From NCBI GenBank assembly GCA_965203275.1, contig OZ241865.1, positions 2,304,001 to 2,368,000 on the forward strand: a stretch of 64,000 nt of DNA. The letters are read 5' to 3'. Positions 231 to 28,298 of the stretch are shown here, in pieces. The notes below the pieces were generated by a model. It searched no databases and was not told the DNA's origin. It saw only the letters and a program-made list of their open reading frames with translations. The position numbers were made by a program, and so were the translations under genes. Position 1 is the stretch's first letter. Each line of letters starts with the position of its first letter. Source of the DNA: Bdellovibrionales bacterium (lineage in GTDB: Bacteria > Bdellovibrionota > Bdellovibrionia > Bdellovibrionales > JAUICD01).

Positions 231-670
231 CTTGTTTCCCTAACATGGTATTAAAAAAAGAAGGGATCCTCCTTACTAAAAGTAAACGGACTTTTGAGGT
301 AGCCAGCCTTTGATCGACGGCGTGAGCCAAAAGGTGTAAGAAAGAACTTTTTCCTTAACATGAAGTAAAAAGAAACGAAGAGATCCTCCTACTAAAAGTG
401 GTCAAGCTTTCTAGGTTGCCATTGGTGATGAAGGAATTTTTCCTTAACATCATGTTAAAGGACGAAGAGATCCTTCCCTACTAAAAATAAACGGATTTTT
501 GAGGCATTGCTCTTTTTGGACAGCGATAGCTGTCAGAGCAATGCCCAAAAACAGCCAGAGGCTGGTTTATTTTTAGTGAAAAAGATAAGAAGGCGACAGC
601 CTTCGGCTGGCAACCAGAAAGTGACCAGAGGTCAGACCACTTTTAGTGAAACAACCACTTTTAGTGAAAC
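231..670 (+). repeat. Cluster of family A hairpin repeats: one partial copy, and one full copy (437-582) nested in another
   Basis: Shared motifs TTCCTTAACAT, GATCCT, ACTAAAAGT...CCAGAGG...TTTTAGTGAAA. Confidence 0.85.
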
Positions 671-1476
671 AACTCATCAAACCAACGCCTTAGAGTGCTG
701 ACAGAAATCTTTGTTTGTTTTGCTACTTCTGCAAAGGCTTTTTCAACTCCCATTTCTTTCTTTTTTTCAATAACTAGAGCAATGGTTTCTTCATGATGTT
801 CTTGATAAAACAAACGTGTCAAATCGTCGACAGAGAACCCTGTTTTCTCTGCTACCTCTGCAATAGCTTTATCAAATGATTCCAGCTCTTTCTTTCTTTC
901 AATAACTAGAGCTATGGCTTTACTTTTATATTTATAAAACCAATTCCTCAGAGTTCTGGCATGAATCCCTGTTTGCTCTGCTATTTCTGCAATAGCTTTC
1001 ATAATTCCTATCTTTTTATTTATTTTTTCCATCATTAGAGCAACGCCCTCTGCTTTTTGTTCTTTAGAATAATAATTGCGTTTTTTCTTTTTTGAAAAAT
1101 TCCAAAAAGATCGCTTAGCTTGATCTATCAATGGATAGAGTGTACCTTTAATCTGAGCCGGTGTCTTACCATCAAAATACTCTGATAGAAAATGAAAAAT
1201 AGGCGAATGAGTACCCGAGGAAGCTAAAAAGAAATGTTCTGGAAATGTGGGAATCCGAAAAGTCTTATCATATCGTTTTGTCTTATCTCTAATATTTATG
1301 TACCTGACTGCTTTTTCTGTATTACTAAGTTGTAAAATCCGACCATTTTGACGATGTATGTTTCTGATCTCTTCTTCTTTCTCACGAATAGCTAAATTCC
1401 ATAAACGATCAAATCCTTTGTCATAGCCGATCATTCTCAATGTCGATACAGTTTCATTTACATGTAGAAGAAGCAA
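661..1476 (-). CDS. Protein with three C-terminal HTH-like repeats (IS3 OrfA-like HTH); probably the 3' part of a disrupted gene 661-1921
   Basis: IAEQTGIHARTLRNW, VAEKTGFSVDDLTRLF, VAKQTKISVSTLRRW; in frame with ORF 1486-1689 across a single TAG. Confidence 0.6.
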   Translation of the reverse strand: MLLLHVNETVSTLRMIGYDKGFDRLWNLAIREKEEEIRNIHRQNGRILQLSNTEKAVRYINIRDKTKRYDKTFRIPTFPEHFFLASSGTHSPIFHFLSEYFDGKTPAQIKGTLYPLIDQAKRSFWNFSKKKKRNYYSKEQKAEGVALMMEKINKKIGIMKAIAEIAEQTGIHARTLRNWFYKYKSKAIALVIERKKELESFDKAIAEVAEKTGFSVDDLTRLFYQEHHEETIALVIEKKKEMGVEKAFAEVAKQTKISVSTLRRWFDELFH

Positions 1477-2509: not shown

Positions 2510-3646
2510 TTAGCTGGAAATGAGCTGATCAAAATAATGAAAGACGGCAGGTGTTGCCCAATTTTCTGTAGAAGCAACCTTTTTAATGAGTTTATGTTCT
2601 CTATTTAAAATATAACTTTCTGGTAATCTCCAAGTTCCCCAACTTTCTGCAATTTGCTTATTTCCATGCAGAATAATAAAATCAGAGGAGTCCATTTCAA
2701 AAGCCTTCATAAAATGAATGATATCTGATTTGTTTTCATCCATAGATATTGCTAAAATTTTTACCTGCCCTTGAAATTTATCCACAAGCTTCAACATAGA
2801 ATCTATCTCTTCTATACAGGGGGAACACCATGTTGCCCAAAAATTTACAATAGTGATAGTCCCTCTCAAATCAGACAAGGACACCAAACGATCATCATCT
2901 GCTATAACAGAAGGTAAACTGAAATTCGATGCCCCTACTTCTTCTAATTGAGATAAAATATTCTGATCTTGAGTGACTGCTTGATCCTTATAACCAACAC
3001 AGTTGCGTGCAACAAAAGCAATAGTTGCCAATAAAACAATCAGAATAAAGGCTATTAAAAGGCCCTTTGTCTTTGGAGTTAAGAAAGACTTTAATCGAGA
3101 CCATAAAGATGGCTTTGTGATCACCTGAGCCTTTACAGGAGTCTTATCTTCTGGCGTTTGATCAGGAGGAAGAGCCTTACCCTTGCTTTCTGGTTGCACT
3201 GGAGGTTTTGCCTTTTTAGCTGGTTTCAACTTGACGACCTCTTTCTGCATGAGCTTGATTCTATCTTCCTTACTTAAAATCAAACCAGGCTCAACCCATT
3301 CAATCAAAGCCATATTGGCATTGTCTCCCATACGACAACCAGACTTAATAATACGTGTATAACCTCCTTTGCGATCCACAAACTGAGGAGCTAAACGATT
3401 AAAAACATCTGCAATGAGTTTCTTGTTAGGATACCTAGCTAAGAGTAACCTTCGTTCATGCAAACCACCTTTCTTAGCTAGAGTGATAAGCTTTTCTGCA
3501 TGTCTTCTGAGTTCTTTGGCCTTCGCTAAAGTAGTTGTGATACGTCCATATTGAATCAAATCAAAGACTAAGTTCCTTAATAAAGACTTCTTATGATTAT
3601 CACTACGGCCAAAACTCTTGCGTTGGACTTTGACTCTATGTCTCAT
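2510..3646 (-). CDS. rplQ: 50S ribosomal protein bL17 fused to a linker, TM helix and TlpA/ResA-like thioredoxin domain
   Basis: N-terminal MRHR...GRITTTLAKAKELRR...GGYTRIIK; position after rpoA; hydrophobic GLLIAFILIVLLATIAFVA; NFWATWCSPC. Confidence 0.9.
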   Translation of the reverse strand: MRHRVKVQRKSFGRSDNHKKSLLRNLVFDLIQYGRITTTLAKAKELRRHAEKLITLAKKGGLHERRLLLARYPNKKLIADVFNRLAPQFVDRKGGYTRIIKSGCRMGDNANMALIEWVEPGLILSKEDRIKLMQKEVVKLKPAKKAKPPVQPESKGKALPPDQTPEDKTPVKAQVITKPSLWSRLKSFLTPKTKGLLIAFILIVLLATIAFVARNCVGYKDQAVTQDQNILSQLEEVGASNFSLPSVIADDDRLVSLSDLRGTITIVNFWATWCSPCIEEIDSMLKLVDKFQGQVKILAISMDENKSDIIHFMKAFEMDSSDFIILHGNKQIAESWGTWRLPESYILNREHKLIKKVASTENWATPAVFHYFDQLISS

Positions 3647-3667
3647 AAACTTACCTTTATAAATGCT

Positions 3668-5290
3668 CTAATTACTTTGGCCTGTTGATCCCCCACCTTT
3701 CTGATCAGTGGGATCATGTTGATCTGTTGCAGGGTCATAACCATCAGAATGTTCTACAGATCCTTGATCTGTTGGATCTGTTGTGTATCCAGTGGCTCCC
3801 CCTTGACCATATCCACCTTGTCCACCCTGTTGACCATATCCACCTTGTCCACCCTGTTGACCATATCCACCTTGTCCACCTTGTTGACCATATCCACCTT
3901 GTCCACCCTGTTGACCATATCCACCTTGTCCACCTTGTCCTTGACCATGTCCACCCTGCCTTGGATGTCTATATGAAGGATCCTGTCCTCCTTGTTGATT
4001 ATAAGGATCTTGTTGTCCGTACCCACCTTGTCCAGTAGAGGATCTGTACGGATGACCCTCTTGTTGACCATACCCTTCTTGTGCTGGAGCTTCTCCCCCA
4101 TAACCACCTTGTTGCATTGCTCCATATCCACCACCCTGCCCTTGACCATGTCCTCCTACTGGCCCGCCTTCATAAGGTGGCCCAGCAGGTCCACCAGGTC
4201 CAGCAGGTCCACCAGGTCCAGCAGGTCCACCAGAGCCTTGTTGCTGATATCCTGCCCTCATAGCCATGTTTTCATTGTTGTTATCCATCATTTCAATAGA
4301 AGAAGGAGGCCATCCATCAACTCTCATCCCTAAACTCAAATTCATACTTGTAAGTATTTCTTTAATTTCATTTAAGGACTTCCTTCCAAAGTTTTTTGTT
4401 TTGAGCATATCAGCTTCTGTCTTTGTAACAAGCTCTCCAATATAACGAATATTTGCATTTTTTAAACAGTTAGCACTTCTAACTGATAACTCCAAGTCAT
4501 CCACAGATCGAAATAAATTATCATTCAGTTGTGGCATAGCAGCTTCTTTTGCTACCTCTTGTACTTCTACAACTTCATCAAAATTAATAAAGACTTGAAC
4601 TTGCTCTTTGATAATCTTAGCAGCTAGAGTACATGCCTCATCTGGCTTTAAAGATTCATCTGTCCAGATTTCTAAGACAAGTCGATCATAGTCTGTTCTC
4701 TGTCCCACACGAGCATTCCCTACATGGTAATTGACTTTTCGAACAGGACTATACAAACTATCTACAGCAATAAAATCTACTGGTAAATCAGTCTTTTGAT
4801 CAGAATAAAGCACATAACCTCTACCAAACCGGCATATAATTTCAGCATGAAATTTACCATTTTCTCCTAGTGTACATATATGCTGATGAGGATTGATCAC
4901 AGAGATTTTATCATTGACCTGAATATCAGCTGCTGTCACTGGACCTTGCCCTTCTTTAACGATTGTGAGAGTGACAGGCTCTGGAGTAAACTGACGAAAA
5001 CGTACTTCTTTAAGGTTTAAAATAATATCAGTCACATCCTCTAACACATCAGGAATAGTCGTAAACTCATGGAGTACCCCTTCAAAACGCACGGCAGCCA
5101 CTGCCGACCCCATCATAGAACTGAGCAAAACTCTCCGAAGGGAGTTGCCTAAAGTTGTCCCATAACCCCTCTCTAAAGGTGCAATGGTAAACTTCCCATA
5201 ACCATCTGTTAAAGAGTCTTGATCTATGTCAAAAGACTTAGGCTTAATTAGCTTTTGCCAAAATTGATTGTAATGCTTTTGAATTTCCAT
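3668..5290 (-). CDS. rpoA: RNA polymerase alpha subunit with ~200-aa low-complexity C-terminal extension
   Basis: [44 protein letters not shown]. Confidence 0.97.
3803..3937 (-). repeat. Five 27-bp tandem repeats encoding GGQGGYGQQ within rpoA
   Basis: TTGACCATATCCACCTTGTCCACCYTG x5 on the plus strand. Confidence 0.9.
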
Positions 5291-10310: not shown

Positions 10311-10322
10311 AAACACTCCCAA

Positions 10323-10680
10323 TTCGTTCGTTCTTGGGTAAGTCGCAAGGCGACTTACCTGTCATCCCTCTGTGTTCCTTCGTTCATCATCGTCACATAG
10401 GACCCTTACTTAGACTGCTCATTCATTTGTTTGTTGGGCAATCCGCAAGGCGGCTTGCCTGTCATTCCTCTGTGTTCCTTCGCTTATCATCGTCATATAG
10501 AACCCTTACTTAGACTGCTCATTCATTCTACTATTCGTTCGTTCTTGGGTAAGTCGCAAGGCGGCTTGCCTGTCATTCTCCTGTGTTCCTTCGTTCATCA
10601 TCGTCACATAGGACCCTTACTTAGACTGCTCATTTTGTGTTCCTTCGTTCATCATCGTCATATAGGACCTTTGCTCATTC
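10323..10680. repeat. Family B ~96-100-bp repeats, three full and one partial
   Basis: TTGGGYAA..CGCAAGGCG.CTTRCCTGTCAT...GTGTTCCTTCG.TYATCATCGTCAYATAG repeated. Confidence 0.92.
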
Positions 10681-12009: not shown

Positions 12010-12410
12010 GTTTGTTCGTTCTTGGGTAAGTCGCAAGGCGACTTACCTGTCATTATCCTGTGTTCCTTCGTTCATCATCGTCATATAGGACCCTTGCTTA
12101 GACTGCTCATTTGTTTCTTGGGCAATCCGCAAGGCGGCTTGCCTGTCATTCTTTTGTATTCCTTCGTCCATCATCGTCATATAGGACATTTGCTCAAACT
12201 GCTCATTCATTTGTTCTTGGGCAATCCGCAGGGTGGCTTGCCTGTCATTCTTTTGTGTTCCTTCGCTTATCATCGTCACATAGGACCCTTGCTTAGACTG
12301 CTCATTTGTTTCTTGGGCAATCCGCAGGGTGGCTTGCCTGTCATTCTTTTGTGTTCCTTCGCCTATCATCGTCATATAGGACCCTTGCGTTCGTCGTTGG
12401 GCAATCCGCA
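12010..12410. repeat. Family B repeats, four full and one partial
   Basis: Tandem 96-99-bp units between rpsH and rplF. Confidence 0.92.
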
Positions 12411-13938: not shown

Positions 13939-14567
13939 CTATTTTGCTTCTTCCGGATTGGCCTGATTGGTATTATTGTTATCATCATTGGTAGCTTCTT
14001 GAGGATTGTCCTGAGCGTCTCCATTATCACCTTCTGCTTCATCTATTTCAGCAGGGAAATTACGTACCACTTCCGAATTATCTTCATCTGTGATCTGATC
14101 TAGTAAATCCTGTGGTAGGACTCCTCCTTGAGGATTATTGTTTCGAAAGGCTTCAATAGCATCTAATACATCTTCATTAACTACTTTATAAAGTGTAAGA
14201 TGGCCTGTTTCTTCACTTTCTCTTTCGCCTATAAGAACAAATCCTTCTTCAACTGCTACCTCATCTTCAGTCTCTTCTACTGGAGGGGTTGCTCCATCTG
14301 AAGTATCTGCTACTGGACTGGATCAGGTTTAGTAACATCGCTATAAAAATAAACTGCCGTTTGATCATTATCTGCAACATCATGTCTTATATTAAAATTA
14401 TAATCAACGTCAACTGTCGTATTCGTATATGTATAACCTTTATCGTTGGTATTGTTTTTTAATTTATGTTCTGTTCCATTTTGTTTGTTAGGCTTACCAC
14501 AACCTATTAAAAATATTGTAGTTAAAGCCGTTGTAAATAACAGTGTATTTTTAAGTGCGTTTTTCAT
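13939..14567 (-). pseudogene. Acidic lipoprotein frameshifted by a 5-bp duplication
   Basis: Lipobox FLIGC; ACTGG duplicated at 14312-14321; removing one copy gives a continuous 207-aa ORF to TAG at 13939. Confidence 0.75.
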
Positions 14568-14796
14568 TTTAACCCCCTCTAATGGTTTTAATTATTTTTA
14601 TTAATGACTTTTTTAAAGCTTATCTTTAAGGATAAAAAAATAAAAAATACTTTGTCTATTGTTTTTTATTTTTTACCTATATATTATTATTACATAAGTT
14701 TAAGGTCTAAATTGTCAAACCTCATATCTTTAGTCCTGACTTTAGGTATAACGCACCGCATCAACGCCCCTTTTATTTAAGTAAAATGAAATAACT

Positions 14797-16146
14797 ATGA
14801 AGATAAAAAAAGGAGAAAATGATCTGGAAAATAAATATAGTTTTCAAGAAATACAAAATTTAATGAACCAACGCAATCTTATGCCTTGCAAGCTACCTAC
14901 ACTTAAGGCTATGCAAAGAGGATTTGATCATCTCATACAAAATAATCCATCTATATCTTCTAATTTAACAAAATCAAAAGTTATTTTAATTGCAGGGACA
15001 AATGGCAAAGGCACAGTTGCAAAAACTTTACAAACCCTTCTGACTGAAAATAATCAATACGTAGGTCTTTTTACTTCACCACACCTTATGTCTATTTGTG
15101 AAAGCATACAAATTGACGGACAACCTCTTAGTGAAGATTTGTTTGTTAAATGTTTCCACTTGCTTTTTGATATTTATCAAAAGTGGCATTTAAGTCATTT
15201 TGAAATGCTTACATTAATGACTACAGAGTTATTTTTTGGTCATCGTATTTCACCCTCTGTTAAATATGCTATTTTTGAAGTAGGTATGGGAGGTAAGTTA
15301 GATGCTACAAACGTTATTCCACATGACTTATCTATCATTACACAAATAAGTTATGATCACCAACATTTATTAGGATATAACTTAGAAGATATTGCAAAAC
15401 ATAAGTTAGGTATTATTTCCAAAAACAATCAAGTGGTTGCTGCTAGCTGTTTTTGGCAAAATCCTCGATTGGCTTCTCTTAAAAAAAACATACAAAAACA
15501 AACACAATCTCAATGGCATACAGTTGATTCTTTCAGTTATCAAACTCAGTACTCTCCACCAGAAGGTTTTATTTCTATCTATGGTCAAAAGCAGAAGATG
15601 GGTTTATTAGGAAGAAGATCTGCTGAAAATACAGCTATGGCATTAAAGGCTTATCAGTTATTAGGTTTTAACCCACAAGCCCATTTGAAAACTCTTGCTA
15701 AGGTGCAGTGGAAAGGACGCATGCATCAAGAAAACATAACTTTCTGCCCTTGCTCTGTTTATTTTTCAGGAGATCATAATAAGCAAGGTATTGAAAGCTT
15801 GATTGAAATTTTAAAAGACTTTCATTACAAAAATATTTATTTTTTAGTCAGTGTGGGGCAAGCAAAAGATCCAGAAGATATTTTGTCAGACCTTTTCAAT
15901 GTTAAGAATGCATTTATTTATTTAACAACAGCCCATTTTAGAGGAATGCAAAAATCTGAATATAGACAGTGGCTTTCAAAGGTTTCTGGTTATATTGCAA
16001 AACCACAAGAAGCTTTTTTGCAGATATGTAAAAAATGTCAAAAAGATGATTTGTTTGTTGTAACAGGTTCTCTTTATTTAGTAGGAGAACTCATGTCTTA
16101 TCTCAAGTCAAAGGAATCTATTCCAAGTGGATGTGAATCTAAATAA
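14797..16146 (+). CDS. folC: Folylpolyglutamate synthase/dihydrofolate synthase
   Basis: IAGTNGKG, FTSPHL, EVGMGGKLDATN, TGSLYLVG. Confidence 0.93.
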   Translation: MKIKKGENDLENKYSFQEIQNLMNQRNLMPCKLPTLKAMQRGFDHLIQNNPSISSNLTKSKVILIAGTNGKGTVAKTLQTLLTENNQYVGLFTSPHLMSICESIQIDGQPLSEDLFVKCFHLLFDIYQKWHLSHFEMLTLMTTELFFGHRISPSVKYAIFEVGMGGKLDATNVIPHDLSIITQISYDHQHLLGYNLEDIAKHKLGIISKNNQVVAASCFWQNPRLASLKKNIQKQTQSQWHTVDSFSYQTQYSPPEGFISIYGQKQKMGLLGRRSAENTAMALKAYQLLGFNPQAHLKTLAKVQWKGRMHQENITFCPCSVYFSGDHNKQGIESLIEILKDFHYKNIYFLVSVGQAKDPEDILSDLFNVKNAFIYLTTAHFRGMQKSEYRQWLSKVSGYIAKPQEAFLQICKKCQKDDLFVVTGSLYLVGELMSYLKSKESIPSGCESK

Positions 16147-19100
16147 ATAATAAATAATTTAATTTTTTGTTGTGGATATTTTTCAGCTAAAGCTTCCCCA
16201 TAATATCTTAACTGCTTGCGTTCTTTTTGATGATCCGTCTTCTGGCCTGTCTTATAATCCACAATGTAAAGCACATCTCCTATAATACCCCATAGATCAA
16301 TCTTCCCTTCAATAATTTGCTTCTCCGAATGGTGATAGTGTAAAAAAGACCACTCTGAATACCCTTTCATTAAAAGTTGTTTGATAGGAGGTTCCTCTAA
16401 AGATAATAAAGATACAATAGATTGAATGATCTGCTGATGTGTGTTCTTTTGAAAATAACATGAAAAGTGTTTCTCAATGATGTCTTGTGGCTTTTCTTCT
16501 ATAAAGTGTGGATTTAAACAAAATGCTTGAAGTAATCTATGAAAAGCACTGCCTAAGTGCATTTTTTCTACCTTTTTTAAAAGCATATATTTGTTACTTT
16601 TTTGTTTTGTTAGCTCTACTGATGGTTTTTTCTCTTGGAGTAGCTCTGTCACACTCATTCGCTGTATATTTGTTTTGTGATCGAGATCTAGTTGTAATTT
16701 TTCTTTGGTGGATTGACTTTCTGCATTTTGTTTTATATTCAAAGGAGGCATTTGACCATCAAAATCTTTGATTGCATAGCTATAATGCGTACAGATTTGT
16801 TTCCCTATAATTTCTGGAGGTATCCACAAATGACATTTGCTACGATCTTGCCAACTATCTTTGGCAATCTTCTGACTGTGACAAAAAAGATGAACTGACT
16901 TTTTAGCTCTTGTCATAGCTACATACAATAACCTGTCGGATTCCATTTGTTCTCTTTTTTTGATCTCCTCTACTGCAAGATCACCTAATAAAGAGTGTTT
17001 TTTTGTGTCATCTTTATTTTTAAGGCCGATGCCCCATAAATGATCACGTTGTGATCCCTCTCTTTCTAAAACAAAAAAAGGCTTTGCTGTAGTTGTGTAC
17101 TCAGGAGCTTCATTGACATGAGGGATTAAGACATGTTGAAATTCTAAACCTTTTGATTTATGCACTGTCATCAATTGCAAGCGATGGGATTGTAAGGAAG
17201 GTACAGCATCAGATTGCAAGTCATTAGGGGATAAAAAATCTAAAGTAAACTTTAAATAGTTAAACCCTGGTTGTTGTTCTTCTGATTGTATTTGTATAAA
17301 GTACTTCCAAATATGAGCTTCAAGATCACCTGAGCCATCATACATCTTACAAAAATCAATCATACCTAAACTTATGCAAGCTTTTTTAAGAGCTTCAGTT
17401 ATGCCTAGTGTATCGGCATCTTGAATCCATTTTTTTAACTTTGTTTTTAAAGATTCCCAATCTTGATTTTGCAAAGATAAAAGTGTTTGCCAAAGAGAAT
17501 TTAGCTTTTTGTTTTGATATTCATTCATTAAAATATGAAGGTCTGATATAGATAGTCTAATCCAAATAGACCTTAAAACCTCTATTAAATTCAAATCATT
17601 GTAAGGATTGAGGATAAATTTTAAAATGTTATTAATGGACCTTATATATTTAGGAGGAGTTTTTTCTGATGTGAATAAATGATAAGGAATAGAATATTGT
17701 GTCAGCTTTTTAGCTATGCGAGAAAGATGGTGATTCTTTCTACAAATAATAGATATGTCAGAGTAAGAAGCTCCTTTGTTTAACAATTCAATCACCTCTG
17801 CTACCACTCCTTGATCGTGTATTTCATTTTTATTGTGTCTTATGTTGTATTTTGAGGATTCTTTAGAAGTATCAAAGGTTTGTGTGTCTTGATAGCGGGT
17901 GAATAAAGCCACAGGGTGAATCGTTTGAAAGTCTAAAGATTTTGGTTTGATCACTGCAAAAGGACTTTGCATATTTTGAAAGAAATCATTAAAAAAACAA
18001 ACAAGACTTGGTTGAGCTCTGTAGTTTGTATCAAGTTTTTGTGTGTTTTGTATGGACTTTTGTTTATCTTCAAAAACTTCAGATCTTGCTCCTCTGAAAA
18101 GATAAATACTTTGTTGAGGATCTCCTACGATAAATTCTTGGGAGGAACCCTTCAAATGATTTAAAATTTTTGCTTGTATAGGTGTAGTGTCTTGATATTC
18201 GTCAATCAGCCAATAATCCCATTCTTTAGAAAAAGATTGAATAGTGTTAGGATGGTTTTTTAAAATTTTTAATATGACAAACTCTAAGTCTCTTATGGAC
18301 ATCAACCCATGGGCTTGTTTGACACTTTCAAAAACAAGGACAAACTGTTGAGCTAAATGATCAAAAAGTGAAAAATATTCAGCATATTGTTTTAAGTATT
18401 TTGTCTGATAAAGATGTTCTTTTTCAAAAAAGCTTTTCCAATCTTTGAATGCAGGTATTTTGAAATATTTTTTTGTATCTTTATGTGCTTTAAGGCTATC
18501 AAAGTTTTTATTAATAAATTTTAGAGAGTCTAAAAGAGTTTCATAAGATTGATTTTGAGTTTCATCAGAGTTATTAAAATATTGATGAAGATGAGAACTT
18601 ATGTTGAGGTTTTTGTAAAAATCAAGACAATACAAGTTCTGCCAGAGGCTTTTGATTTTATGGATGTTCATAGCTATAAGGTCTTCTGTGGATGGTGGTT
18701 TAAGATTTTGAAAAGTATAAAAAGATGATAAGTAATACAAACAGAGAGATTGCATTTGTGAAAAACTGTAATGATCAAATAACTTTTGATACTCTGCATT
18801 TTTTTTAATTAAATTTCTTAAAGTATTTAAGGCCCATTTTTTATTATTTGTAGATTCTATGATCTGAAAGCCAGGGTCATATCCTGTTTCAAAAGCATAT
18901 TGTTTTAAAAATAAGGATAATAAACCATCAATTGTAGAAACATGTATTTGACGCGTAAGGATAAAATCTTTTAAAAAATCAAATTGATTTTGAGAGTGTT
19001 TTGAATGAGAAATTTCTTGAATAGCTCTAAGGATGAGGCGTTCTTTAAGCTCTTGTGTGGCCTTTCTAGTAAAAGTTGTGACAATAACTCTGGGCCAGCG

Positions 19101-19211
19101 TTCATTTTGTTGATAAAAATGAAAAGCATAGTTTTGGATTTGTTGAATCAATTGAGTTGTTTTGCCTGCACCTGCCCCTGCTCTATAAATAGCAGATTGA
19201 TTAAGATTCAT
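16098..19211 (-). CDS. addA: AddA/RecB-like UvrD helicase with C-terminal PD-(D/E)xK nuclease
   Basis: AGAGAGKT, TFTRKATQELKERL, DEYQDT, VGDPQQSIYLFRGA, YVAMTRAK, GKIDL...VDYKTG. Confidence 0.85.
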   Translation of the reverse strand: MNLNQSAIYRAGAGAGKTTQLIQQIQNYAFHFYQQNERWPRVIVTTFTRKATQELKERLILRAIQEISHSKHSQNQFDFLKDFILTRQIHVSTIDGLLSLFLKQYAFETGYDPGFQIIESTNNKKWALNTLRNLIKKNAEYQKLFDHYSFSQMQSLCLYYLSSFYTFQNLKPPSTEDLIAMNIHKIKSLWQNLYCLDFYKNLNISSHLHQYFNNSDETQNQSYETLLDSLKFINKNFDSLKAHKDTKKYFKIPAFKDWKSFFEKEHLYQTKYLKQYAEYFSLFDHLAQQFVLVFESVKQAHGLMSIRDLEFVILKILKNHPNTIQSFSKEWDYWLIDEYQDTTPIQAKILNHLKGSSQEFIVGDPQQSIYLFRGARSEVFEDKQKSIQNTQKLDTNYRAQPSLVCFFNDFFQNMQSPFAVIKPKSLDFQTIHPVALFTRYQDTQTFDTSKESSKYNIRHNKNEIHDQGVVAEVIELLNKGASYSDISIICRKNHHLSRIAKKLTQYSIPYHLFTSEKTPPKYIRSINNILKFILNPYNDLNLIEVLRSIWIRLSISDLHILMNEYQNKKLNSLWQTLLSLQNQDWESLKTKLKKWIQDADTLGITEALKKACISLGMIDFCKMYDGSGDLEAHIWKYFIQIQSEEQQPGFNYLKFTLDFLSPNDLQSDAVPSLQSHRLQLMTVHKSKGLEFQHVLIPHVNEAPEYTTTAKPFFVLEREGSQRDHLWGIGLKNKDDTKKHSLLGDLAVEEIKKREQMESDRLLYVAMTRAKKSVHLFCHSQKIAKDSWQDRSKCHLWIPPEIIGKQICTHYSYAIKDFDGQMPPLNIKQNAESQSTKEKLQLDLDHKTNIQRMSVTELLQEKKPSVELTKQKSNKYMLLKKVEKMHLGSAFHRLLQAFCLNPHFIEEKPQDIIEKHFSCYFQKNTHQQIIQSIVSLLSLEEPPIKQLLMKGYSEWSFLHYHHSEKQIIEGKIDLWGIIGDVLYIVDYKTGQKTDHQKERKQLRYYGEALAEKYPQQKIKLFIIYLDSHPLGIDSFDLR

Positions 19212-19374
19212 AAAAGTACCTCTTTGTTGGAATCGTGATGGCTTTGACTTGCTTGTTATAGTATCTTTTGATAAATTTTACAATACTAACGTTTTATATC
19301 TTTTAACAATTTTGAGGTAAATTAAAACAACCCCATATAAAACAAGTTATTTACTTAAGTTATTATTGTTTTAG

Positions 19375-20271
19375 GTGAGCAGGCCCATGCAACATATACA
19401 CAATACATTTTTTCAACAAGTTCATCATCAGACAAGTTGTGTTTCAAGACAAACCAATACAGATATTTTAAAATGGCTAGATAAAATCTATTGTGGTGAT
19501 TGTTTGGAAGTCATGCAAAAGATACCAGCAGATTCCATAGATTTGATTGTCACATCACCACCATACGCAGATGCCCGTAAGCACACTTATGGTGGCATTC
19601 TCCCAGATCGATACACACAATGGTTTTGCCAGAGAGCAAAGCAGATGTTAAGGATTTTAAAACCTACAGGTTCCTTTGTGTTGAATATTAAAGAGAAGGC
19701 CATTGATGGAGAACGTCACCCTTATGTATTAGAGTTAATTCTTGCACTTAAGAAACAAGTAGGGTTTAGATGGGTAGAAGAGTACATTTGGCATAAAACA
19801 ACATCTGCTCCTGGAAAATGGAAGTATCGTTTTAGGGATTCTTGGGAACGCATTTTACATTTTTCAAAAACAAAAAACATTAAAATGAGACAGGAGGCTG
19901 TTAAAATTCCTGTTGGTGATTGGACGAAGCAACGATTAAAAAATATGAGTCAGCGAGATTTGCTACGTCAAAATTCAGCTACCAATAGTAAAATGGGACG
20001 GCGGATTGCAGCTTGGAAGGGAAAGAAGTTAGTTTATCCAAGTAATGTTTTGCATCGCCCTCCTGTGTGCCACAATACAGGTCATAGTGCAGCTTTCCCT
20101 AAATGGTTACCAGAATTTTTTATTTTGTTGTTTACTGATCCTCAAGATATTGTACTGGATCCTTTTCTGGGGAGTGGTACAACATATCTAGTAGCTAAGA
20201 GATTAAATCGCAGACCTATTGGTATTGAGATCAATAAACTCTACATTGAAAAAATATCAGAGGATATTTAG
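19375..20271 (+). CDS. DNA methyltransferase, N4C/N6A, beta-class motif order
   Basis: IVTSPPY before HSAAFP and DPFLGSGTT; start uncertain. Confidence 0.9.
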   Translation: MSRPMQHIHNTFFQQVHHQTSCVSRQTNTDILKWLDKIYCGDCLEVMQKIPADSIDLIVTSPPYADARKHTYGGILPDRYTQWFCQRAKQMLRILKPTGSFVLNIKEKAIDGERHPYVLELILALKKQVGFRWVEEYIWHKTTSAPGKWKYRFRDSWERILHFSKTKNIKMRQEAVKIPVGDWTKQRLKNMSQRDLLRQNSATNSKMGRRIAAWKGKKLVYPSNVLHRPPVCHNTGHSAAFPKWLPEFFILLFTDPQDIVLDPFLGSGTTYLVAKRLNRRPIGIEINKLYIEKISEDI

Positions 20272-20293
20272 TGAAAATCAAAATAACCCCCCA

Positions 20294-21601
20294 ATGAATA
20301 TGAAATGGATGAATATGAAATGGATGAATATGAACACTATAGACAAAAAAACCATTCGCATTGAAGGTGATATCCCTGTACAATTACCTATTCACAATGG
20401 CAGTCGCTTTTTATTTATCAGTTATGATCAGAGTGCTTTAACACACGGTATTCATAAATATCCAGCAAAGTTTTTTCCTGAACTGCCTCGCTGGTTTATT
20501 CAAAGATATTCTCAACCTGGTGATATCATTCTTGATCCTTTCATGGGAAGTGGTACCACTAATTTGGAAGCTTCATTACTTGGACGTCACAGTGTAGGTG
20601 TAGATGTGGATCCGTTCTCTCGATTTATTGCAACAGTTAAGACAACCCCATTGCCAACACAGAGGCTTATAAAGGTTTATAATGAACTTAAAGCAAAAGT
20701 GAGCCTTTATGTTGAACCAAAGCATCTAAAAAATGTTCCTGATTTTCCTTATAGGGATAAATGGTTTAAGCCTTACATTCTCAAGGAATTAGCGTACATC
20801 AAGACATCTATTGAACGATTACAGACAGTTCAATCTATTAAAAATTTTTTTCTTGTTTGTTTTTCTTCTATCATTCGGCAAGTTTCTGAAGCAGACAATA
20901 ATTGTACAAGAACAGTTATAAGGAAGAAACTCAACAAGCAGGTTTTGCCATGTTATGCAATAAATTTGTTTTTGAAAAAGATAGAAGTACATGTAAAAAA
21001 TATGATTCTTTTTGCAAAAAAGAAACCAAAGGGAAGAGTCACCATTCCTCAAAATGTGGATGCAAGAGATATGTCTGTTTTTCAGGATGAAATTTTTAAT
21101 CTTGCTATCACCTCTCCTCCTTATTTGAATGCAGTAGATTATCCTCGTACACATCAGCTAGAGATATATTGGTTAGGCTTTGCTAGTGGTTCACTTAAGT
21201 CACTTAAAAGTCACCATGTAGGATCAGAGATTGTATCATCAAAAGAATACTCTCAGTTTCATAAAACAAATTGTCAGCTTGCCAATGATGTTATTGATAA
21301 AATTTATAAAATTGATCCACGCCGTGCTTATATTGCAACAAAATACATACAAGACATGATCATTAACTTACGTGAAGTTTATCGTGTGTTAAAATGTGGA
21401 TCTCCATACATCATTGTGGTTGGTAATAATTTGATTCGTGGTTTTCCATTTGAAACATGGCGTTATCTTCAAGAGGAAGCACTTAAAATAGGCTATAAAG
21501 TAGAGTCTTATTTTGTATCAGAAATCATCAATCACTTTATCAAAGTTCCACGTAAAGAACGCATTAACAATGATTATATTCTTATCTTAAGGAAGCCATA
21601 A
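20294..21601 (+). CDS. DNA methyltransferase, N4C-type, alpha-class motif order
   Basis: HKYPAKF, DPFMGSGTT before ITSPPY; several possible ATGs 20294-20330. Confidence 0.88.
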   Translation: MNMKWMNMKWMNMNTIDKKTIRIEGDIPVQLPIHNGSRFLFISYDQSALTHGIHKYPAKFFPELPRWFIQRYSQPGDIILDPFMGSGTTNLEASLLGRHSVGVDVDPFSRFIATVKTTPLPTQRLIKVYNELKAKVSLYVEPKHLKNVPDFPYRDKWFKPYILKELAYIKTSIERLQTVQSIKNFFLVCFSSIIRQVSEADNNCTRTVIRKKLNKQVLPCYAINLFLKKIEVHVKNMILFAKKKPKGRVTIPQNVDARDMSVFQDEIFNLAITSPPYLNAVDYPRTHQLEIYWLGFASGSLKSLKSHHVGSEIVSSKEYSQFHKTNCQLANDVIDKIYKIDPRRAYIATKYIQDMIINLREVYRVLKCGSPYIIVVGNNLIRGFPFETWRYLQEEALKIGYKVESYFVSEIINHFIKVPRKERINNDYILILRKP

Positions 21602-22459
21602 TGGATCATAAAAACTATTTTTGAGGTCGTCATTTGTTATTAATCTGCCTCCTGTTTGCTTAGCTAAAATATCCTTTTGTACTAATGTCTTTATATCAGA
21701 TAGCATCCTAGACTGACAGACAATCAAGAGCGTATCCATGCCCATAGCTCCACAACCTTTCACCACTGTTTTAGGAAAGTATTTTTTAATATGTTGTTTT
21801 AGTTTTTGTGTATTTTGACAACAAAATCTCTTTTCCTCTAAACATTGAGCAAATTCTTCTAAAGCCTTTAAAAATTCTGGTATGTTTTTTTGTAAGAGGG
21901 CCTTAATGGCTTTTTGGCTTTTTTGAGCAAGCAACTGACAAGCTTGTAAGTTAATATTTTCTTTAAGATGTTGATGTGTCAATATTTTATGACCTGTTGT
22001 GCAGATCACAAAACTTAAACCTTTAAAAAATTCTTTAAAAGGAAGAATCTTGAAAGTATTTTTTGGTATATCAATATAACACATTCCACCTAAGCATTGA
22101 GAGAGGACATCAACTCCACTAGGAGCAATGCCACCTTGACCCATATCTTTTTGATATTGGTTTTTAATTTTAGAAGCTAATTTTGCAGAGAGGTTATGAT
22201 GAAAGAGACATGTTTTTTCATATTCGCTAAGGTGATTGCCAGAAAGATATTGACAGAGCCATTTGGCACTTGAAGCTCCAAAGCCTCCTACTTTAGAGGC
22301 TTTTTGGGTTTTGTCGTTTTGATTTTGTTGGTATGGGTCTAAAAAGTGTCCATCTTGAAATTGAAAGTAGGGGAGGGTATTAAGGAGCAAAGCACCTCCT
22401 TCTTGTAGGACACCATATTCTCCTATGAGAAATGTTTTACTTGGAATTAAAAAAGGCAT
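21587..22459 (-). CDS. GHMP kinase, mevalonate/phosphomevalonate kinase-like
   Basis: PSKTFLIGEY, GFGASSA, PSGVD, KGCGAMGMD. Confidence 0.75.
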   Translation of the reverse strand: MPFLIPSKTFLIGEYGVLQEGGALLLNTLPYFQFQDGHFLDPYQQNQNDKTQKASKVGGFGASSAKWLCQYLSGNHLSEYEKTCLFHHNLSAKLASKIKNQYQKDMGQGGIAPSGVDVLSQCLGGMCYIDIPKNTFKILPFKEFFKGLSFVICTTGHKILTHQHLKENINLQACQLLAQKSQKAIKALLQKNIPEFLKALEEFAQCLEEKRFCCQNTQKLKQHIKKYFPKTVVKGCGAMGMDTLLIVCQSRMLSDIKTLVQKDILAKQTGGRLITNDDLKNSFYDPLWLP

Positions 22460-22573
22460 TTTCTTCCTTCTTAAGGCTTGATTTTTTTATTTATAGCTGT
22501 ATAGTGTTTAACTGTAAAGTAAGGTCACTTACAAATAATATTTTTATAGAACAACAAAACAAATTGATGAAAA

Positions 22574-22810
22574 ATGGCAGATAAAGATGAAAAATTTGAA
22601 GATAATGTACCGGGGAAGTACTATGTGGACACATCTTGTATTGCCTGCGACGCTTGCTCTGTGGCAGCCCCAGATAACTTTAAACTAAGTGAGGAGTTAG
22701 AACATGCCTTTGTTGCAAAACAACCCTCCTCACCGCAAGAAGAAGAAGAATGTCAAGAGGCCCTTGAAAGTTGCCCTGTCGAAGCCATTGGCAGTGATGG
22801 GGACAAATAA
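22574..22810 (+). CDS. Ferredoxin
   Basis: CIACDAC...CPVEAI, acidic. Confidence 0.92.
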   Translation: MADKDEKFEDNVPGKYYVDTSCIACDACSVAAPDNFKLSEELEHAFVAKQPSSPQEEEECQEALESCPVEAIGSDGDK

Positions 22811-23438
22811 AGCCAGTAGAAATCAACAAATTATTTTAAAGCTACTCAAAGAACATTATCAATCTTCTCGATGTGCTTTATCTTATAAAACGCCTTACCA
22901 ACTGCTTGTGGCAACTATTCTTTCAGCTCAATGTACAGATCAGAGAGTCAACCAAGTCACGCCTGCTCTTTTTAAGAAATATCCAGATGCTCAAAAAATG
23001 TCTCAAGCTCATCTGAAAGAGATAGAGACTCTCATTCGATCGACTGGTTTTTACAAAAACAAAGCTAAACATATTTTAGCTACCTCTCAGGAGGTGGTCA
23101 GGCAATATAAAGGGCAAGTTCCTTGTACAATGGAGGAGTTAAGTCGTTTACCAGGCGTAGGAAGGAAAACAGCTAATGTGGTTTTAGGTAATGCCTTTGG
23201 TATTCCTGGGATAGTGGTAGACACTCATGTCACAAGGCTCTCTAATCGACTGGGATTAGCTAGTGGGTTAAATGCTGTGAAGTTAGAAAAAGACTTAGAA
23301 AGAGTTGTGTGCCGAGAAGATTGGATTGACTTTTCACACTGGATGATTTGGCATGGTCGAAAGCTTTGCAAAGCTAGAAAACCTCTGTGTGGAGATTGCT
23401 TTCTACAACATGTATGTACTTTTTCTCACTTGAAATAA
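22797..23438 (+). CDS. nth: Endonuclease III
   Basis: ILSAQCTD, LPGVGRKTANVV, VDTHV, C-x6-C-x2-C-x5-C. Confidence 0.95.
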   Translation: MGTNKASRNQQIILKLLKEHYQSSRCALSYKTPYQLLVATILSAQCTDQRVNQVTPALFKKYPDAQKMSQAHLKEIETLIRSTGFYKNKAKHILATSQEVVRQYKGQVPCTMEELSRLPGVGRKTANVVLGNAFGIPGIVVDTHVTRLSNRLGLASGLNAVKLEKDLERVVCREDWIDFSHWMIWHGRKLCKARKPLCGDCFLQHVCTFSHLK

Positions 23439-23445
23439 GACACGT

Positions 23446-23982
23446 TTATGTTATGTGTTTTTGATTTGAATTTCTTTCATAGATGAGAAAGGTGAAAGAT
23501 GGGGTGATCTCCGGCGAATGAGTAGAAGGGCAAGCTGAAATAAGCTCAAAAGCTTTTTTATCAAAGTCAGGGAAAAAGGTATCTCCTTCATATACTTCAT
23601 CAATTAAAGTTAAATAAATACGATCTGCTATGTCCATTGTTTGCTCATAAATCTGACTTCCACCACAAATAAAAATTTCCTCTGGCCAAAGTTTCTGATC
23701 AATTTGTTTTTGACACAGTGCAATAGCGTCCTGAATAGAAGGTACAACGCAAACTTCTGCATAAGGGAATTTTAAATCTTTTTGCTGTGTGACTACCACA
23801 TTGAGGCGATCTTTTAAAGGTTTATTGGATATGGAGTTAAAAGTTTTTCGCCCCATCACAATGCAGTGTCCTTTTGTTTTTTCTTGGAAATAATGCATAT
23901 CTTCAGGGATATTCCAAGGGAGGTGATTTCCCTTACCAATCACCTTATTTTCAGACATAGCAACAATTTGAGAAATAATCAT
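23446..23982 (-). CDS. folA: Dihydrofolate reductase
   Basis: [28 protein letters not shown]. Confidence 0.95.
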
Positions 23983-24776
23983 ACAGACACCTCCGCTTTA
24001 ATTTTAGGGTAAGGATGATAATTGATCAACTGAAAATCCTCATACTTAAATGCATCAATGTTTTTAATATGACGATTAAGAATTAAAGTAGGTAAGGGAC
24101 GTGGTTGCCTAGAAAGTTGTAATTTAACCTGTGGTAAATGGTTAGAGTAAATATGGGCATCTCCTAGAGTATGTACAAACTCTCCTGGTGTTAAGTCACA
24201 TACTTGAGCAATCATCATAGTTAGCAAACTATAGCTGGCAATGTTAAAAGGCACACCTAAGAACAAATCGGCACTTCTTTGATAGAGTTGACAAGACAAT
24301 TGACCGAGGTCATCCACATAAAATTGAAAAAGCGTATGGCAAGGGGGCAAAGCCATTTGATCTAAATCTGATACATTCCATGCACTGACAATCAATCTTC
24401 TAGAAGTGGGGTCTTTTTTAATTTGGCTGATCACTTGAGCAACTTGATCCACACTTTTTTGAGAGGAAACCTTCCAAGATCGCCATTGTTGTCCATAAAT
24501 AGGACCTAGATACCCTTTTGAATCAGCCCATTCATTCCAAATACTCACTTTATTTTCTTGTAAATATTTGACATTGGTATCCCCTTTTAAAAACCAAAGT
24601 AACTCATAAATAATAGAACGTAAATGAACTTTTTTGGTGGTTAAGAGCGGGAATCCTTTTTGAAGGTTATATCTAGCTTGTAGACCAAATTTGCTTAAAG
24701 TCCCTGTACCAGTGCGGTCTTTACGCTCCTGGCCTGTCTCAATAACATCTTTTAAAATATCTAAATAAGATTTCAT
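23979..24776 (-). CDS. thyA: Thymidylate synthase
   Basis: DRTGTGT, MALPPCH, YQRSAD, PFNIASY. Confidence 0.98.
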
Positions 24777-25096
24777 TTTAAATCTACTATTATGTATTTT
24801 GTTTATTTTATTTAATGATTAAATTTTTTGATTTTTTTTTAAAACCATCACATTATTTTAAAAAGTTTATATTATATATAATGGGGTCTAGTCATTGGCA
24901 AAAAATTCTTAATAATTTAAATAAAAATATACTTAATTTTGACTTTGACAGTTTATATAGATTAAACTATACCTCTACAAATTAAGATAATCATATTTTT
25001 TTATTCTGGCTTTGACTTTGATACTCTCAATAGGGTATATTTTTTAGCTTTGTAATAAATGAATAATTATAATATATTAATAGAAGGAAAGTGTTT

Positions 25097-25130
25097 ATTT
25101 GGGATCCGGGATCCGGGATCCGGCAACAGA
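25097..25130 (+). repeat. GGGATCC heptamer run
   Basis: GGGATCCGGGATCCGGGATCCGGC. Confidence 0.8.
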
Positions 25131-25164
25131 AGGGAAGGCATTTTGTTTCTTTAACATGGAAATG

Positions 25165-25274
25165 TATGAGTGGAATGCGGGGGCAGGCTTCCGAAGTCCT
25201 CAACCTTCGCTTGCTCTTGAGGGAGCAAGCGGGTTTGCGGAAGATCTTCAGCCTACCCCCGCCTCCCACTCATA
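25165..25274. other. GC-rich long hairpin of unknown function
   Basis: TATGAGTGG/CCACTCATA, GCGGGGGCAGGCT/AGCCTACCCCCGC, CGCTTGCTC/GAGCAAGCG. Confidence 0.6.
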
Positions 25275-25312
25275 ATATTTATGTTTTTTAAGAATTATAA
25301 TTATAAAGATGT

Positions 25313-25472
25313 CTTGTTTCCTTAACTTAATCAGTTCACATGGTGTTAAGGAACGAAAGGATCCTCCTTACTCAAAGTGAACAGGCTTTCTAGGTTGCCA
25401 GCATTTGAGAAGGCGGTAGCCTTCGGCTGGCAACCAGAAAGTGGCCAGAGGCCAGTTCACTTTGAGTGAAAA
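25313..25472 (+). repeat. Family A hairpin repeat, full copy
   Basis: ACTCAAAGTGAAC/GTTCACTTTGAGT outer stem; GAAGGC-GGTA-GCCTTC apex. Confidence 0.85.
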
Positions 25473-25565
25473 AGACAATGAAAGTTTCAAAGAAAAGATT
25501 GAGAATGATATATACAACAAAGAGTGAACATATATGATGTTATGCAGTGAGTTTCTGACCGATTG

Positions 25566-25660
25566 CCTCAAAATTGACCTTCCGGTTCTCTGAAAGGGGC
25601 TTGATCTGGTGGATCTACGAAGTGAGATAATGATAGATTCAAGGAAGGGAAATTTTGAGG
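25566..25660 (+). promoter_or_regulatory. Candidate structured leader of the S10 operon
   Basis: CCTCAAAATT/AATTTTGAGG and CCTTCC/GGAAGG stems ending ~80 nt before rpsJ. Confidence 0.4.
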
Positions 25661-25741
25661 GGGACAGTTCACGTATTTCTAAAAGAGGTACGTACGGGTA
25701 GACGAAGATCAACGAAATTAGACAATGAAAGGTACATACGT

Positions 25742-26059
25742 ATGCAAAATCAAAAAATCCATATTTGTTTAAAGGCATTTGATCACAGGTTGTTAGATCA
25801 ATCTACAAAGGAGATCATTGAAACTGTGCGTAGGACAGGTGCGAAGATATCTGGACCTATTCCTTTACCGACTCGGATTAATCGCTATACTGTTTTAACA
25901 TCTCCTCATGTTGATAAAAAATCAAGAGAACAATTTGAGATACGCACACATAAGAGGATTTTAGACATCCTTGACTCCACAAAACAAACAGTTGATCAGC
26001 TCAGTAAATTAGACCTTTCTGCAGGAGTTAATGTTGAAATTAAGCTATCAGCAAATTAA
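25742..26059 (+). CDS. rpsJ: 30S ribosomal protein uS10
   Basis: [36 protein letters not shown]. Confidence 0.98.
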
Positions 26060-26159
26060 TTATTTATTTTAAATAAAATATGATACTTATAAAGAGGTAC
26101 ATAGAAGATACATACAGGGCAAGACAGTTAAATAACAATTAAACAACACAAGGTCTCTA

Positions 26160-27278
26160 ATGACTACAAACAAACCTATTGAAAAAAATACAGAAAGCAA
26201 CCTTCTAGTAGAAGATATTCCTAAAGGAGCTTCGTCTTCAGAAGATACGTCTATTCAAAAAGAAACTTCTATTCAAAAAGAATCTTCTACTCAAACAGAA
26301 ACTTCTTTACCTCAAAAACAATCCTCACAAAATGACATAAAACAAGACAAAAAAGAAAGCATATCAAAAGTCAAAGAAGATACAAAACCACCAAAAGTAC
26401 AAGTTCAAGAAAAAGATACAAACAAGCAAGAAGAAAAACCACAAGAAGTCAGCACTCAGAAAAAAGAAGATTCATCACAGGATGCTCCTAAAGAGCAAAA
26501 AGAATTACAAATAACAGATCAAAACCCAAACAAAACCCCAAAACAAAAACAAGAGGCTTTACCTCGTGAAGAAATAACAGTTCAAAAAGAACCTGATCTT
26601 CCTCATTTGCGTCTTAATGGTCTTTATGCGACAAAGTTGGGTATGTCTTCTATTTATAACGAACAAGGACAGGTTGTACCTGTTACAGTTTTGAGATTTG
26701 ACATTTGGAAGGTGACACAAATTAAAACAAAAGAAAAGGACGGATATACAGCTATTCAAATAGGTTCCATGCCTAAGTCTCAAAGAAAATCTAACAAAGC
26801 TCAAATAGGACATCTTAAAAAGTCAAGTTTTTCTAGTTCGGTGACTTTTCTGCGTGAAATTCGAGGTGATCTTCCCAAACAGCCAGATCATGTTGATGTA
26901 GCAGAAGATTCTCATGGCCAATTAGGTCAGACCATATCTATTGAAAGTCTTGCTAAAGGAGATCGAGTCCATCTTTCTTCTACTTCAAAAGGACGGGGCT
27001 TTACAGGAACAATGAAAAGATGGGGTTATGGTGGAGGGCCTTCTTCGCATGGTTCTCAATTTCACAGACAACCAGGTTCTGTGGGCATGTGTGAAGAACC
27101 TGCCAGGGTGATACCTGGTAAAGGGATGCCGGGTCGTCATGGAGGGAAGAGAGTAACTCTCAAACATGTTGAAGTTGTAGATATCCTACCAGATAAAGCT
27201 CTTATTTTAGTTAAGGGAGGTGTTCCTGGAGCTACAAACACTCTTGTACAGCTTATGAAGGAGGGGGTGTCGCAATGA
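26160..27278 (+). CDS. rplC: 50S ribosomal protein uL3 with ~150-aa N-terminal extension
   Basis: KLGMS, DGYTAIQ, SKGRGFTG, HRQPGSVG, GMPGRHG. Confidence 0.95.
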   Translation: MTTNKPIEKNTESNLLVEDIPKGASSSEDTSIQKETSIQKESSTQTETSLPQKQSSQNDIKQDKKESISKVKEDTKPPKVQVQEKDTNKQEEKPQEVSTQKKEDSSQDAPKEQKELQITDQNPNKTPKQKQEALPREEITVQKEPDLPHLRLNGLYATKLGMSSIYNEQGQVVPVTVLRFDIWKVTQIKTKEKDGYTAIQIGSMPKSQRKSNKAQIGHLKKSSFSSSVTFLREIRGDLPKQPDHVDVAEDSHGQLGQTISIESLAKGDRVHLSSTSKGRGFTGTMKRWGYGGGPSSHGSQFHRQPGSVGMCEEPARVIPGKGMPGRHGGKRVTLKHVEVVDILPDKALILVKGGVPGATNTLVQLMKEGVSQ

Positions 27279-27994
27279 CTCAAATCAATGTATTAGATTG
27301 GAATAAACAATCAATTAAAAGCATAGAACTTCCGGATAGCATTTTTGCACAGCCTGTTGCAAAGCATCTTTTACATGATGTGGTCAAATGGCAGTTAGCT
27401 AAGAAACGTAAAGGGAATCATCAAACAAAAACACGTGCTTTGGTCTCGGGAGGAGGTAAAAAACCTTTTAAACAAAAAGGTTCTGGCAGAGCTCGTCAAG
27501 GTTCTATTCGTTCTCCTTTAATGAGGGGAGGGGGTGTGATCTTTGGACCTTCTAAAAGGGATTATGATTATACTCTCCCTAGAAAAATCAAAAGGGCAGC
27601 CTTAAGGTCGGCTCTTTCTTATTTAGTGAAAGAAAAACGCTTTCATGTTGTGTCGGAGATGACCTCACAAGAAGGTAAAACAAAAGCTCTTTTCAAACAA
27701 CTGCAAAATTTTGGTATTTTGAAAACTGTCTTAATAGATCATCAAGAAAATATACAGTTTAAAAGAGCAGCTAGAAATATACCTAATATCTGTTATTACT
27801 CCACCCAAGGTCTTAATGTATATGACCTTCTCAAATATAATTCAGCTATTGTGACAGAAGGTAGCATTCAAAATATCATTACTAGATGTCAAATACCTCC
27901 TCCTGTTAAAAAGAAGACAAAACCAAAAGCACAACCTAGAGACACAAAGTCTCATAATCAAAACAACCCTCCCCATCAACAAAAGGATCATTAA
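27275..27994 (+). CDS. rplD: 50S ribosomal protein uL4
   Basis: GGGKKPFKQKGSGRARQGSIRSP. Confidence 0.97.
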   Translation: MTQINVLDWNKQSIKSIELPDSIFAQPVAKHLLHDVVKWQLAKKRKGNHQTKTRALVSGGGKKPFKQKGSGRARQGSIRSPLMRGGGVIFGPSKRDYDYTLPRKIKRAALRSALSYLVKEKRFHVVSEMTSQEGKTKALFKQLQNFGILKTVLIDHQENIQFKRAARNIPNICYYSTQGLNVYDLLKYNSAIVTEGSIQNIITRCQIPPPVKKKTKPKAQPRDTKSHNQNNPPHQQKDH

Positions 27995-27996
27995 TC

Positions 27997-28296
27997 ATGT
28001 ATCACATTATCAAAGCACCTTTAAGGACAGAAAAGAACACAGCTCTTCAAAACAACAATAATACTTATGTTTTTGAGGTGGACAGAAGGGCCAATAAAAA
28101 GCAAATTGCTAAGGCTGTTGAACAGCTTTTTGATGTCAAAGTGATGACTGTCAGGACTTTGATCAACAGATATCGGCAATACAAAAACCGGCAGTTTGGT
28201 CAGAAGATGAAAAATCAATCCAGAGTGCATTATTGGAAAAAGGCTTTTGTTCAATTATATCCAGGAAATAAAATCCGTCTTTTTGAGGGGGCTTAA
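27997..28296 (+). CDS. rplW: 50S ribosomal protein uL23
   Basis: [27 protein letters not shown]. Confidence 0.95.
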
Positions 28297-28298
28297 TT

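Follow-up and report, generated by a model that had tools for sequence, protein, structure and literature searches.

Clustering of bacterial RNA polymerase is still attributed mainly to NusA, and the alpha subunit of the enzyme is among the most length-conserved of bacterial proteins. The N-terminal domain (NTD) of alpha is described as assembling the enzyme, with the C-terminal domain (CTD), carried on a flexible linker, reaching DNA and activators (PMC13374769); low-complexity regions are said to be fast and short-lived, and as a rule to be removed by purifying selection (PMC10120016). Atypical Rho factors, as in B. thetaiotaomicron and C. botulinum, are essential transcription proteins with lineage-specific and diverse low-complexity additions, a minority of them prion-like (PMC11347177), and the delta subunit of Firmicutes polymerase has a long disordered C-terminal tail (PMC9674986). 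Full-text literature searches yielded no paper on long tails of alpha itself; supplements such as prion or low-complexity proteome tables could list such proteins. Likewise, a term search of a 2026 review of alpha subunits found no passage on such tails (PMC13374769).

The window analyzed here is a stretch of 64,000 nucleotides from the genome of an uncultured Bdellovibrio-like bacterium (2.57 Mb, one contig). At 3668-5290 it holds a stop-free ORF of 540 aa, rpoA, located between the gene for L17 and one that we take, from its sequence, to encode S4. The features of this locus are as follows.

3668..5290, minus strand: rpoA, RNA polymerase alpha subunit, 540 aa, the only copy (ORF, Pfam, genome search)
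4601..5179, minus strand: alpha N-terminal dimerization domain and insert domain, together residues 38-230 (PF01193 and PF01000 both pass the cut-off; folded in the model)
4349..4528, minus strand: alpha C-terminal domain, residues 255-314, DNA-contact residues unchanged (PF03118, E 5e-27)
4256..4315, minus strand: start of the tail, a conserved GWPP and then a short predicted helix (residues 331-345) common to close relatives, helix pLDDT under 50-60
4182..4233, minus strand: 18-bp tandem unit encoding GPAGPG twice and GPAGPP, with one allele lacking one unit (TRF; a single contig from run X5 has an 18-base gap)
3956..4181, minus strand: degenerate G/Q/Y segment with GGYG, YGQQ and QDP motifs
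3803..3955, minus strand: 27-bp tandem array encoding GGQGGYGQQ four times, with flanking partial units (TRF)
3671..3784, minus strand: acidic end, in which DP..Q motifs number three and the final 30 residues carry a net charge of -5
3647..3667, minus strand: gap of 21 bases separating the stop of rpoA from the start of rplQ
2510..3646, minus strand: rplQ, downstream of rpoA and outside the tail, 378 aa, in which L17 continues by way of a linker and a hydrophobic segment into a thioredoxin-like domain (Pfam)

A second full copy of rpoA is absent from the genome and, because the gene is single-copy, every polymerase should bear its C-terminal extension unless this is cleaved. The dimerization, insert and C-terminal domains of the protein all passed the Pfam cut-offs, the last of them ending at residue 314. 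Solved alpha chains (PDB) aligned to it up to residue 332-336, including the WPP motif, and in a listing of 60 such solved chains none exceeded 368 aa. E. coli RpoA (329 aa) aligned end to end through NTD, linker and CTD, WPP included, but some 205 residues of the source protein lie beyond the E. coli end. CTD residues R271, N274, C275, N300, G302, K304 and S305, aligned to the solved chains, were invariant across 45 sequences; these match the residues that contact UP-element DNA in E. coli alpha. An alignment-based structure model had both NTD and CTD folded, with pLDDT mostly 80-95. This RpoA is a genuine alpha subunit with an added low-complexity region, and the long G/Q/Y tail proposed in the original prediction is present.

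Beyond the conserved end of the CTD, the tail comprises residues 326-540 (215 aa, window 4315-3671), among which are 73 G, 37 Q, 18 P, 16 Y, 5 K/R and 3 I/L/V. G, Q and Y together make up 59% (34%, 17% and 7%), N accounts for 3% and I/L/V for 1%. The tyrosines have a median spacing of 9 residues and GGYG occurs eight times, giving evenly spaced aromatic stickers within a polar spacer as in FET/FUS proteins; the 4 Arg among the 215 residues do not amount to an Arg/RGG-rich partner region. Net charge is nearly neutral, at -0.06 per residue, and so not that of a highly acidic tail. Repeated 12-mers cover 241 of the 645 tail bases, compared with none in the core. The two repeats originally counted as GPAGPG x3 and GGQGGYGQQ x5 are indeed there, with fewer exact copies: two of GPAGPG plus GPAGPP (18-bp unit, 2.9 copies, TRF score 104) and four of GGQGGYGQQ plus GGQGGYGQG (27-bp unit, 5.6 copies, TRF score 258). 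DPTDQ, described originally for the acidic end, is found twice.

Among 1851 ORFs of the genome, the RpoA tail contains the 60-residue window with the highest G/Q/Y/N/S content (0.92). It also has the highest PLAAC-like log-likelihood (38.3, the next being 22.4), as computed with approximate PLAAC frequencies and not with the PLAAC program itself; by this approximate score the tail holds a 60-residue window of yeast-prion-like composition. Hydrophobicity is low, no folded domain was seen and no Pfam family was found within the tail, so that it is predicted to be intrinsically disordered, as had been supposed. In the structure model pLDDT was below 50 over residues 331-535, with a tentative helix at 331-345, values that are weak since the tail lacks alignment depth. 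An alignment-free fold of residues 241-540 left the CTD unfolded too and is uninformative on the tail. Disorder is better supported by the composition of the tail.

The tail codons behave as coding sequence: GC at the three codon positions is 0.76/0.57/0.18 in a genome of 35% GC, and the frame is open although a single change would turn 98 of the 215 codons into a stop. An early stop or a shifted frame where CTD and tail meet was considered and ruled out: the other two tail frames hold 4 and 11 stops, and contigs in all four public runs aligned (three studies; one run possibly the source sample) bridge the junction at position 4315 with 0-3 differing letters and without the true stop that would have ended the protein after the CTD. 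The rpoA stop is bridged by a contig in three of the four runs. The 27-bp array is spanned by no single contig, and its exact copy number is that of the assembly only. Run X5 held two alleles, one contig each, at about equal depth near 4106-4250; one lacks an 18-bp unit and the other has a 3-base insertion, and the frame is kept in both. The suggestion of a tunable repeat number is supported as strain variation, by a one-unit-shorter allele in one run, and not as regulated switching. Run X7, a sponge metagenome, yielded pieces about 97-99% identical, suggesting, from one study, that a near relative lives in sponges. In these pieces 5 of 7 changed tail codons were non-silent, compared with 0 of 6 in the core, some of the changes being near a contig end inside the repeat. 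One strain variant replaces a tail Tyr by His and Gly by Glu/Asp.

Several other observations were made in the window. The gap between rpoA and rplQ, previously given as 22 bp, measures 21. The fusion of L17 to a thioredoxin-like domain was also seen in a genome of the same genus; the two are separate genes in other relatives where both were seen. An ORF of 271 aa at 661-1476 (minus strand) has several helix-turn-helix matches (MerR, ISL3-type). Dispersed intergenic repeats have copies at about 240-660, 2100-2500 and 50633-51130, and at 10322-10634 and 12019-12388, some of them between ribosomal protein genes. Two large ORFs at 33654-37259 and 37643-40759 (plus strand) contain a Cys-containing 153-bp (51-aa) tandem unit. 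At 14310-29135 the S10-spc ribosomal cluster appears split by about 14 kb of other ORFs.

The six closest relatives of the source alpha (one genome and five database proteins, 82-87% core identity) have tails of 48-71 aa that share this helix, contain a stretch of Q/H/N/Y and runs of QG, and finish in QDP(N/D)Q. These tails are a quarter to a third of the length seen here, retain the Q/G/H/Y bias and, where scored, have prion-like scores of at most 11.4. The source tail retains five DP..Q-type motifs, two GGHGQGQGG blocks and the two tandem arrays. From this shared seed and the repeated motifs and arrays, we infer that the tail probably grew through internal duplication of a genus-level Q/G seed.

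The relatives found by the search were Bdellovibrionales. Among 80 named loci, some of which repeat genomes of the order-wide count, 76 had a complete tail; 6 of these exceed 65 aa and the others are 15-57 aa. The CTD was matched in 354 of 384 genomes of the order, and frame length was read for 263, with three partial frames dropped and the unread genomes belonging mostly to the largest family. The median alpha frame in these 263 was 360 aa; 38 frames were at least 400 aa and 30 at least 410 aa. Flagellin was absent from 36 of the 38 genomes with a frame of at least 400 aa, including all 30 of the longest. Tails longer than 65 aa were found in 34 of 50 genomes without flagellin as against 0 of 35 with it, in a set partly picked by small size and long frame. 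In a tool-picked sample of 40 genomes (the source included, one split gene excluded) the figures were 4 of 8 and 0 of 32, and the one long frame in 80 further genomes was likewise in a genome without flagellin. The other 16 of the 50 flagellin-less genomes have tails of at most 65 aa, the smallest genomes among them having 10-13 aa. Small genome size was rejected as the predictor: genomes of 1.2-1.6 Mb have 10-13-aa tails and one of 3.1 Mb has a tail of 164 aa. Sponge-associated Bdellovibrionota are reported to have lost flagella and to have smaller genomes (PMC9944714); by analogy, the other long-tail genomes may also be host-associated.

Long tails form separate groups, one in the source genus, another in a second genus of a different family and a third in a 29-genome clade of a third family, all of whose genomes have tails of at least 58 aa. 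Two trees were built by a quick method; 7 changes are required on them to account for the long tail, and long alpha tails appear to have arisen in at least three lineages. A paired tree test found 2 well-supported pairs, none opposite in direction, and was underpowered, significance being unreachable. The long tails cannot be aligned with one another; they range from 58 to 475 aa and from -0.29 to +0.12 in net charge per residue. Acidic, S/T/P-rich, P/T-repeat and, once, K-rich types occur, mostly with private tandem units. Of 36 tails of at least 55 aa, 34 are net negative and 33 have an acidic final 30-mer (median net -0.10 per residue). The comparison of RpoA lengths proposed in the original prediction reveals long tails that recur across the Bdellovibrionales with unrelated sequences. 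The prion-like label holds for the source tail, by approximate score, and does not generalize: among 35 long tails scored only that of the source is strongly prion-like (38.3), the next reaching 11.5. What recurs is a tail that is long and disordered; a prion-like composition is a local variation on it. A search for alpha proteins of 567-2000 aa gave 91 matches, 8 of them Bdellovibrionales-like (583-695 aa) with polar tails, none of which was prion-like; the other matches inspected resemble fusions or read-throughs.

Other genomes encode proteins with a signal-peptide-like N-terminus, as judged by eye, followed by one to four copies of the alpha CTD (PF03118). Examples are L153:994-2481, L154:2650-3432, L155:1586-3532, L156:1715-2947, L157 and L158 (genomes G302, G349, G365, G359 and G297). 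Up to 14 matches occur per genome, in genera g102, g114 and g115, with none in the source genome. One extra copy is 70% identical to the source alpha CTD and keeps the GWPP motif. It is possible that these proteins are exported mimics of the alpha CTD.

Lengthening was found to be selective. In 14 of 14 long-tail genomes, RpoA exceeded the flagellated reference by 48-455 aa. In the same genomes (five of which gave just 5-8 genes), 28 ribosomal-cluster neighbours were mostly within 30 aa of the reference, the exceptions being one gene in one genome (+73) and L17 in four (+37 to +202). In genus g3 (L009, L019; G003, G004), alpha tails of 12-13 aa occur with Lys-rich L17 tails of 144-155 aa. Median frames without versus with flagellin, from a comparison in which six truncated frames were dropped and kin are not independent, were 445 versus 358 aa for RpoA, 521 versus 485 for NusA, 322 versus 323 for S2, 87 versus 94 for S16, 626 versus 620 for MutL and, shorter without flagellin, 365 versus 384 for RecA; RpoA and NusA alone lengthen among the six, S2, S16 and MutL showing no difference. 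The gain in NusA is a repeat-rich tail of mixed charge. Such C-terminal tails reach about 205 aa in flagellin-less genomes, including some with short alpha tails (L241-L258). One NusA tail (L247, G359) has its repeat in a shifted frame, basic and Cys-containing, with an acidic neighbouring frame, possibly an assembly indel. Genome-wide protein lengthening was rejected, as the median C-terminal difference was 0 in 90 and 102 orthologue pairs (20 regions per reference, some antisense-frame pairs included). The source genome is itself more repeat-prone: its S16 frame (356 aa) exceeds all others in a set of 73, and its S2 frame (435 aa) all others in a set of 74. Tandem repeats were seen there in S16 (15-aa unit, L217) and S2 (10-aa unit, L218), with a short N/G/S/T repeat in RecA (L219) and an N-terminal R/D repeat in Rho (L263). 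A sigma-54 activator and Rho were both found in 5 genomes searched and suggest no mechanism.

The reading that we prefer, and to which we give an even chance, is that alpha bears a long, translated and tolerated disordered appendage, grown by slippage under weak selection. Each polymerase would have two tails hanging from its mobile CTDs, a flexible brush of weak stickiness that probably plays no part in assembly or promoter contact, and replication slippage would have lengthened them. The C-terminus of alpha, and of NusA, would have become permissive once lineages lost motility and entered hosts, where selection against additional residues may be weak; selection would hold the frame open and the residues polar without fixing sequence, charge or length, and the G/Q/Y make-up would be whatever the seed of the source genus encoded. 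We favour this reading because sequence, charge and length appear free, a long tail is absent from 16 of 50 non-motile genomes and the variation seen is mostly non-silent. The short seed in close relatives, the long repeat-bearing S16 and S2 frames of the source genome and the coding-type constraint on the tail codons also fit it. It is weakened by the selective growth of RpoA and NusA, since general drift should not spare other tails, by the orthologue samples without genome-wide lengthening, by the retention of the tail throughout the 29-genome clade and by the negative charge of nearly all long tails. Loss of mismatch repair, as judged by MutL, was rejected as the cause of slippage, MutL being found in 78 of 80 genomes. 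Selection for generic disorder is possible, if on balance doubtful: alpha and NusA tails would have been favoured repeatedly in host-associated lineages for solubility or transcription condensates, with length and disorder mattering and sequence not. Such selection would fit the confinement of lengthening to two proteins that are both on the polymerase and the three or more origins (7 changes). Phase separation in vitro and binding to polymerase subunits are both reported for NusA (PMC7414142), the extra regions of atypical Rho are diverse and disordered, one of them driving phase separation and gut fitness (PMC11347177), and D/E is enriched in low-complexity regions of RNA polymerase proteins (PMC6821194, Table 3). 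Yet the 16 non-flagellated genomes with short alpha tails speak against it, RpoA and NusA lengths correlate weakly in flagellin-less genomes (rho 0.28, p 0.06, n 46), and the paired tree test, with its two pairs, lends it no significance.

The tail could instead be a sequence-specific prion- or FUS-like domain: tyrosines placed evenly along a G/Q spacer would make alpha associate with itself, as droplets or amyloid, above a threshold that depends on the number of repeats. The top PLAAC-like score (with approximate parameters), the regular tyrosines and GGYG motifs with hardly any aliphatics, the bias held in six close relatives and the two repeat-number alleles of run X5 are in its favour, but this length is found in one species, the relatives' tails being shorter and lower-scoring, and copying of a 27-bp unit suffices to space tyrosines evenly. 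With 34% Gly, 17% Gln and 3% Asn, the tail seems unlike the Q/N-dominated cores of amyloids. A strain variant loses a tail Tyr, and amyloid of the sole alpha subunit would probably be costly; we consider this domain improbable. Very improbable, in our estimate, is that the tail is missing from the working enzyme, either as an assembly artefact or because it is translated for the ribosome's run into rplQ and then trimmed by a protease. The short gap to rplQ in long-tail genomes (median 23 bases, 19 of 34 measurable) fits translational coupling, and the 27-bp array is unspanned; however, genomes with short tails have gaps that are just as short (median 26, n=32), the operon tolerates gaps of 120-216 bases, contigs bridge the junction in all four runs, and long tails were seen in 34 genomes and in a further 8 proteins from databases. 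Besides the tolerated appendage, we entertain as a speculative and rather unlikely extension that the alpha and NusA tails of non-motile host-associated Bdellovibrionales evolved repeatedly to form a multivalent brush organizing transcription condensates. Such a brush would be the bacterial equivalent of the CTD of polymerase II, written in the source species in a FUS-like Tyr/Gly/Gln code.

The lineage-wide pattern of alpha and NusA is more interesting than the prion label. A lineage has repeatedly gained 60-475 disordered residues on alpha, together with NusA and not with most ribosomal proteins or RecA. The tails (G/Q/Y, acidic, P/T, K-rich) offer a natural series on one scaffold for asking whether they promote clustering or are merely tolerated and, if tolerated, they would be a clear case of proteins growing while genomes shrink. 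Low-complexity domains of the FET/FUS type have tyrosines spaced along a G/Q-rich polar chain, and the polymerase II CTD consists of tandem repeats on a polymerase subunit. The alpha tail resembles the former in its spaced Tyr and the latter in its repeats on a subunit, but has neither homology to them nor an RGG/RRM partner or Ser/Pro heptads, and its repeat is not conserved beyond the source species. Closest in kind are the atypical Rho factors, from which the present case differs in that the addition is C-terminal and is on a core polymerase subunit; more loosely, the delta tail is comparable, as most long alpha tails of the order are net acidic, although delta is an accessory subunit in its own right, its tail is strongly acidic (PMC9674986) and the alpha tail of the source is nearly neutral and G/Q/Y-rich.
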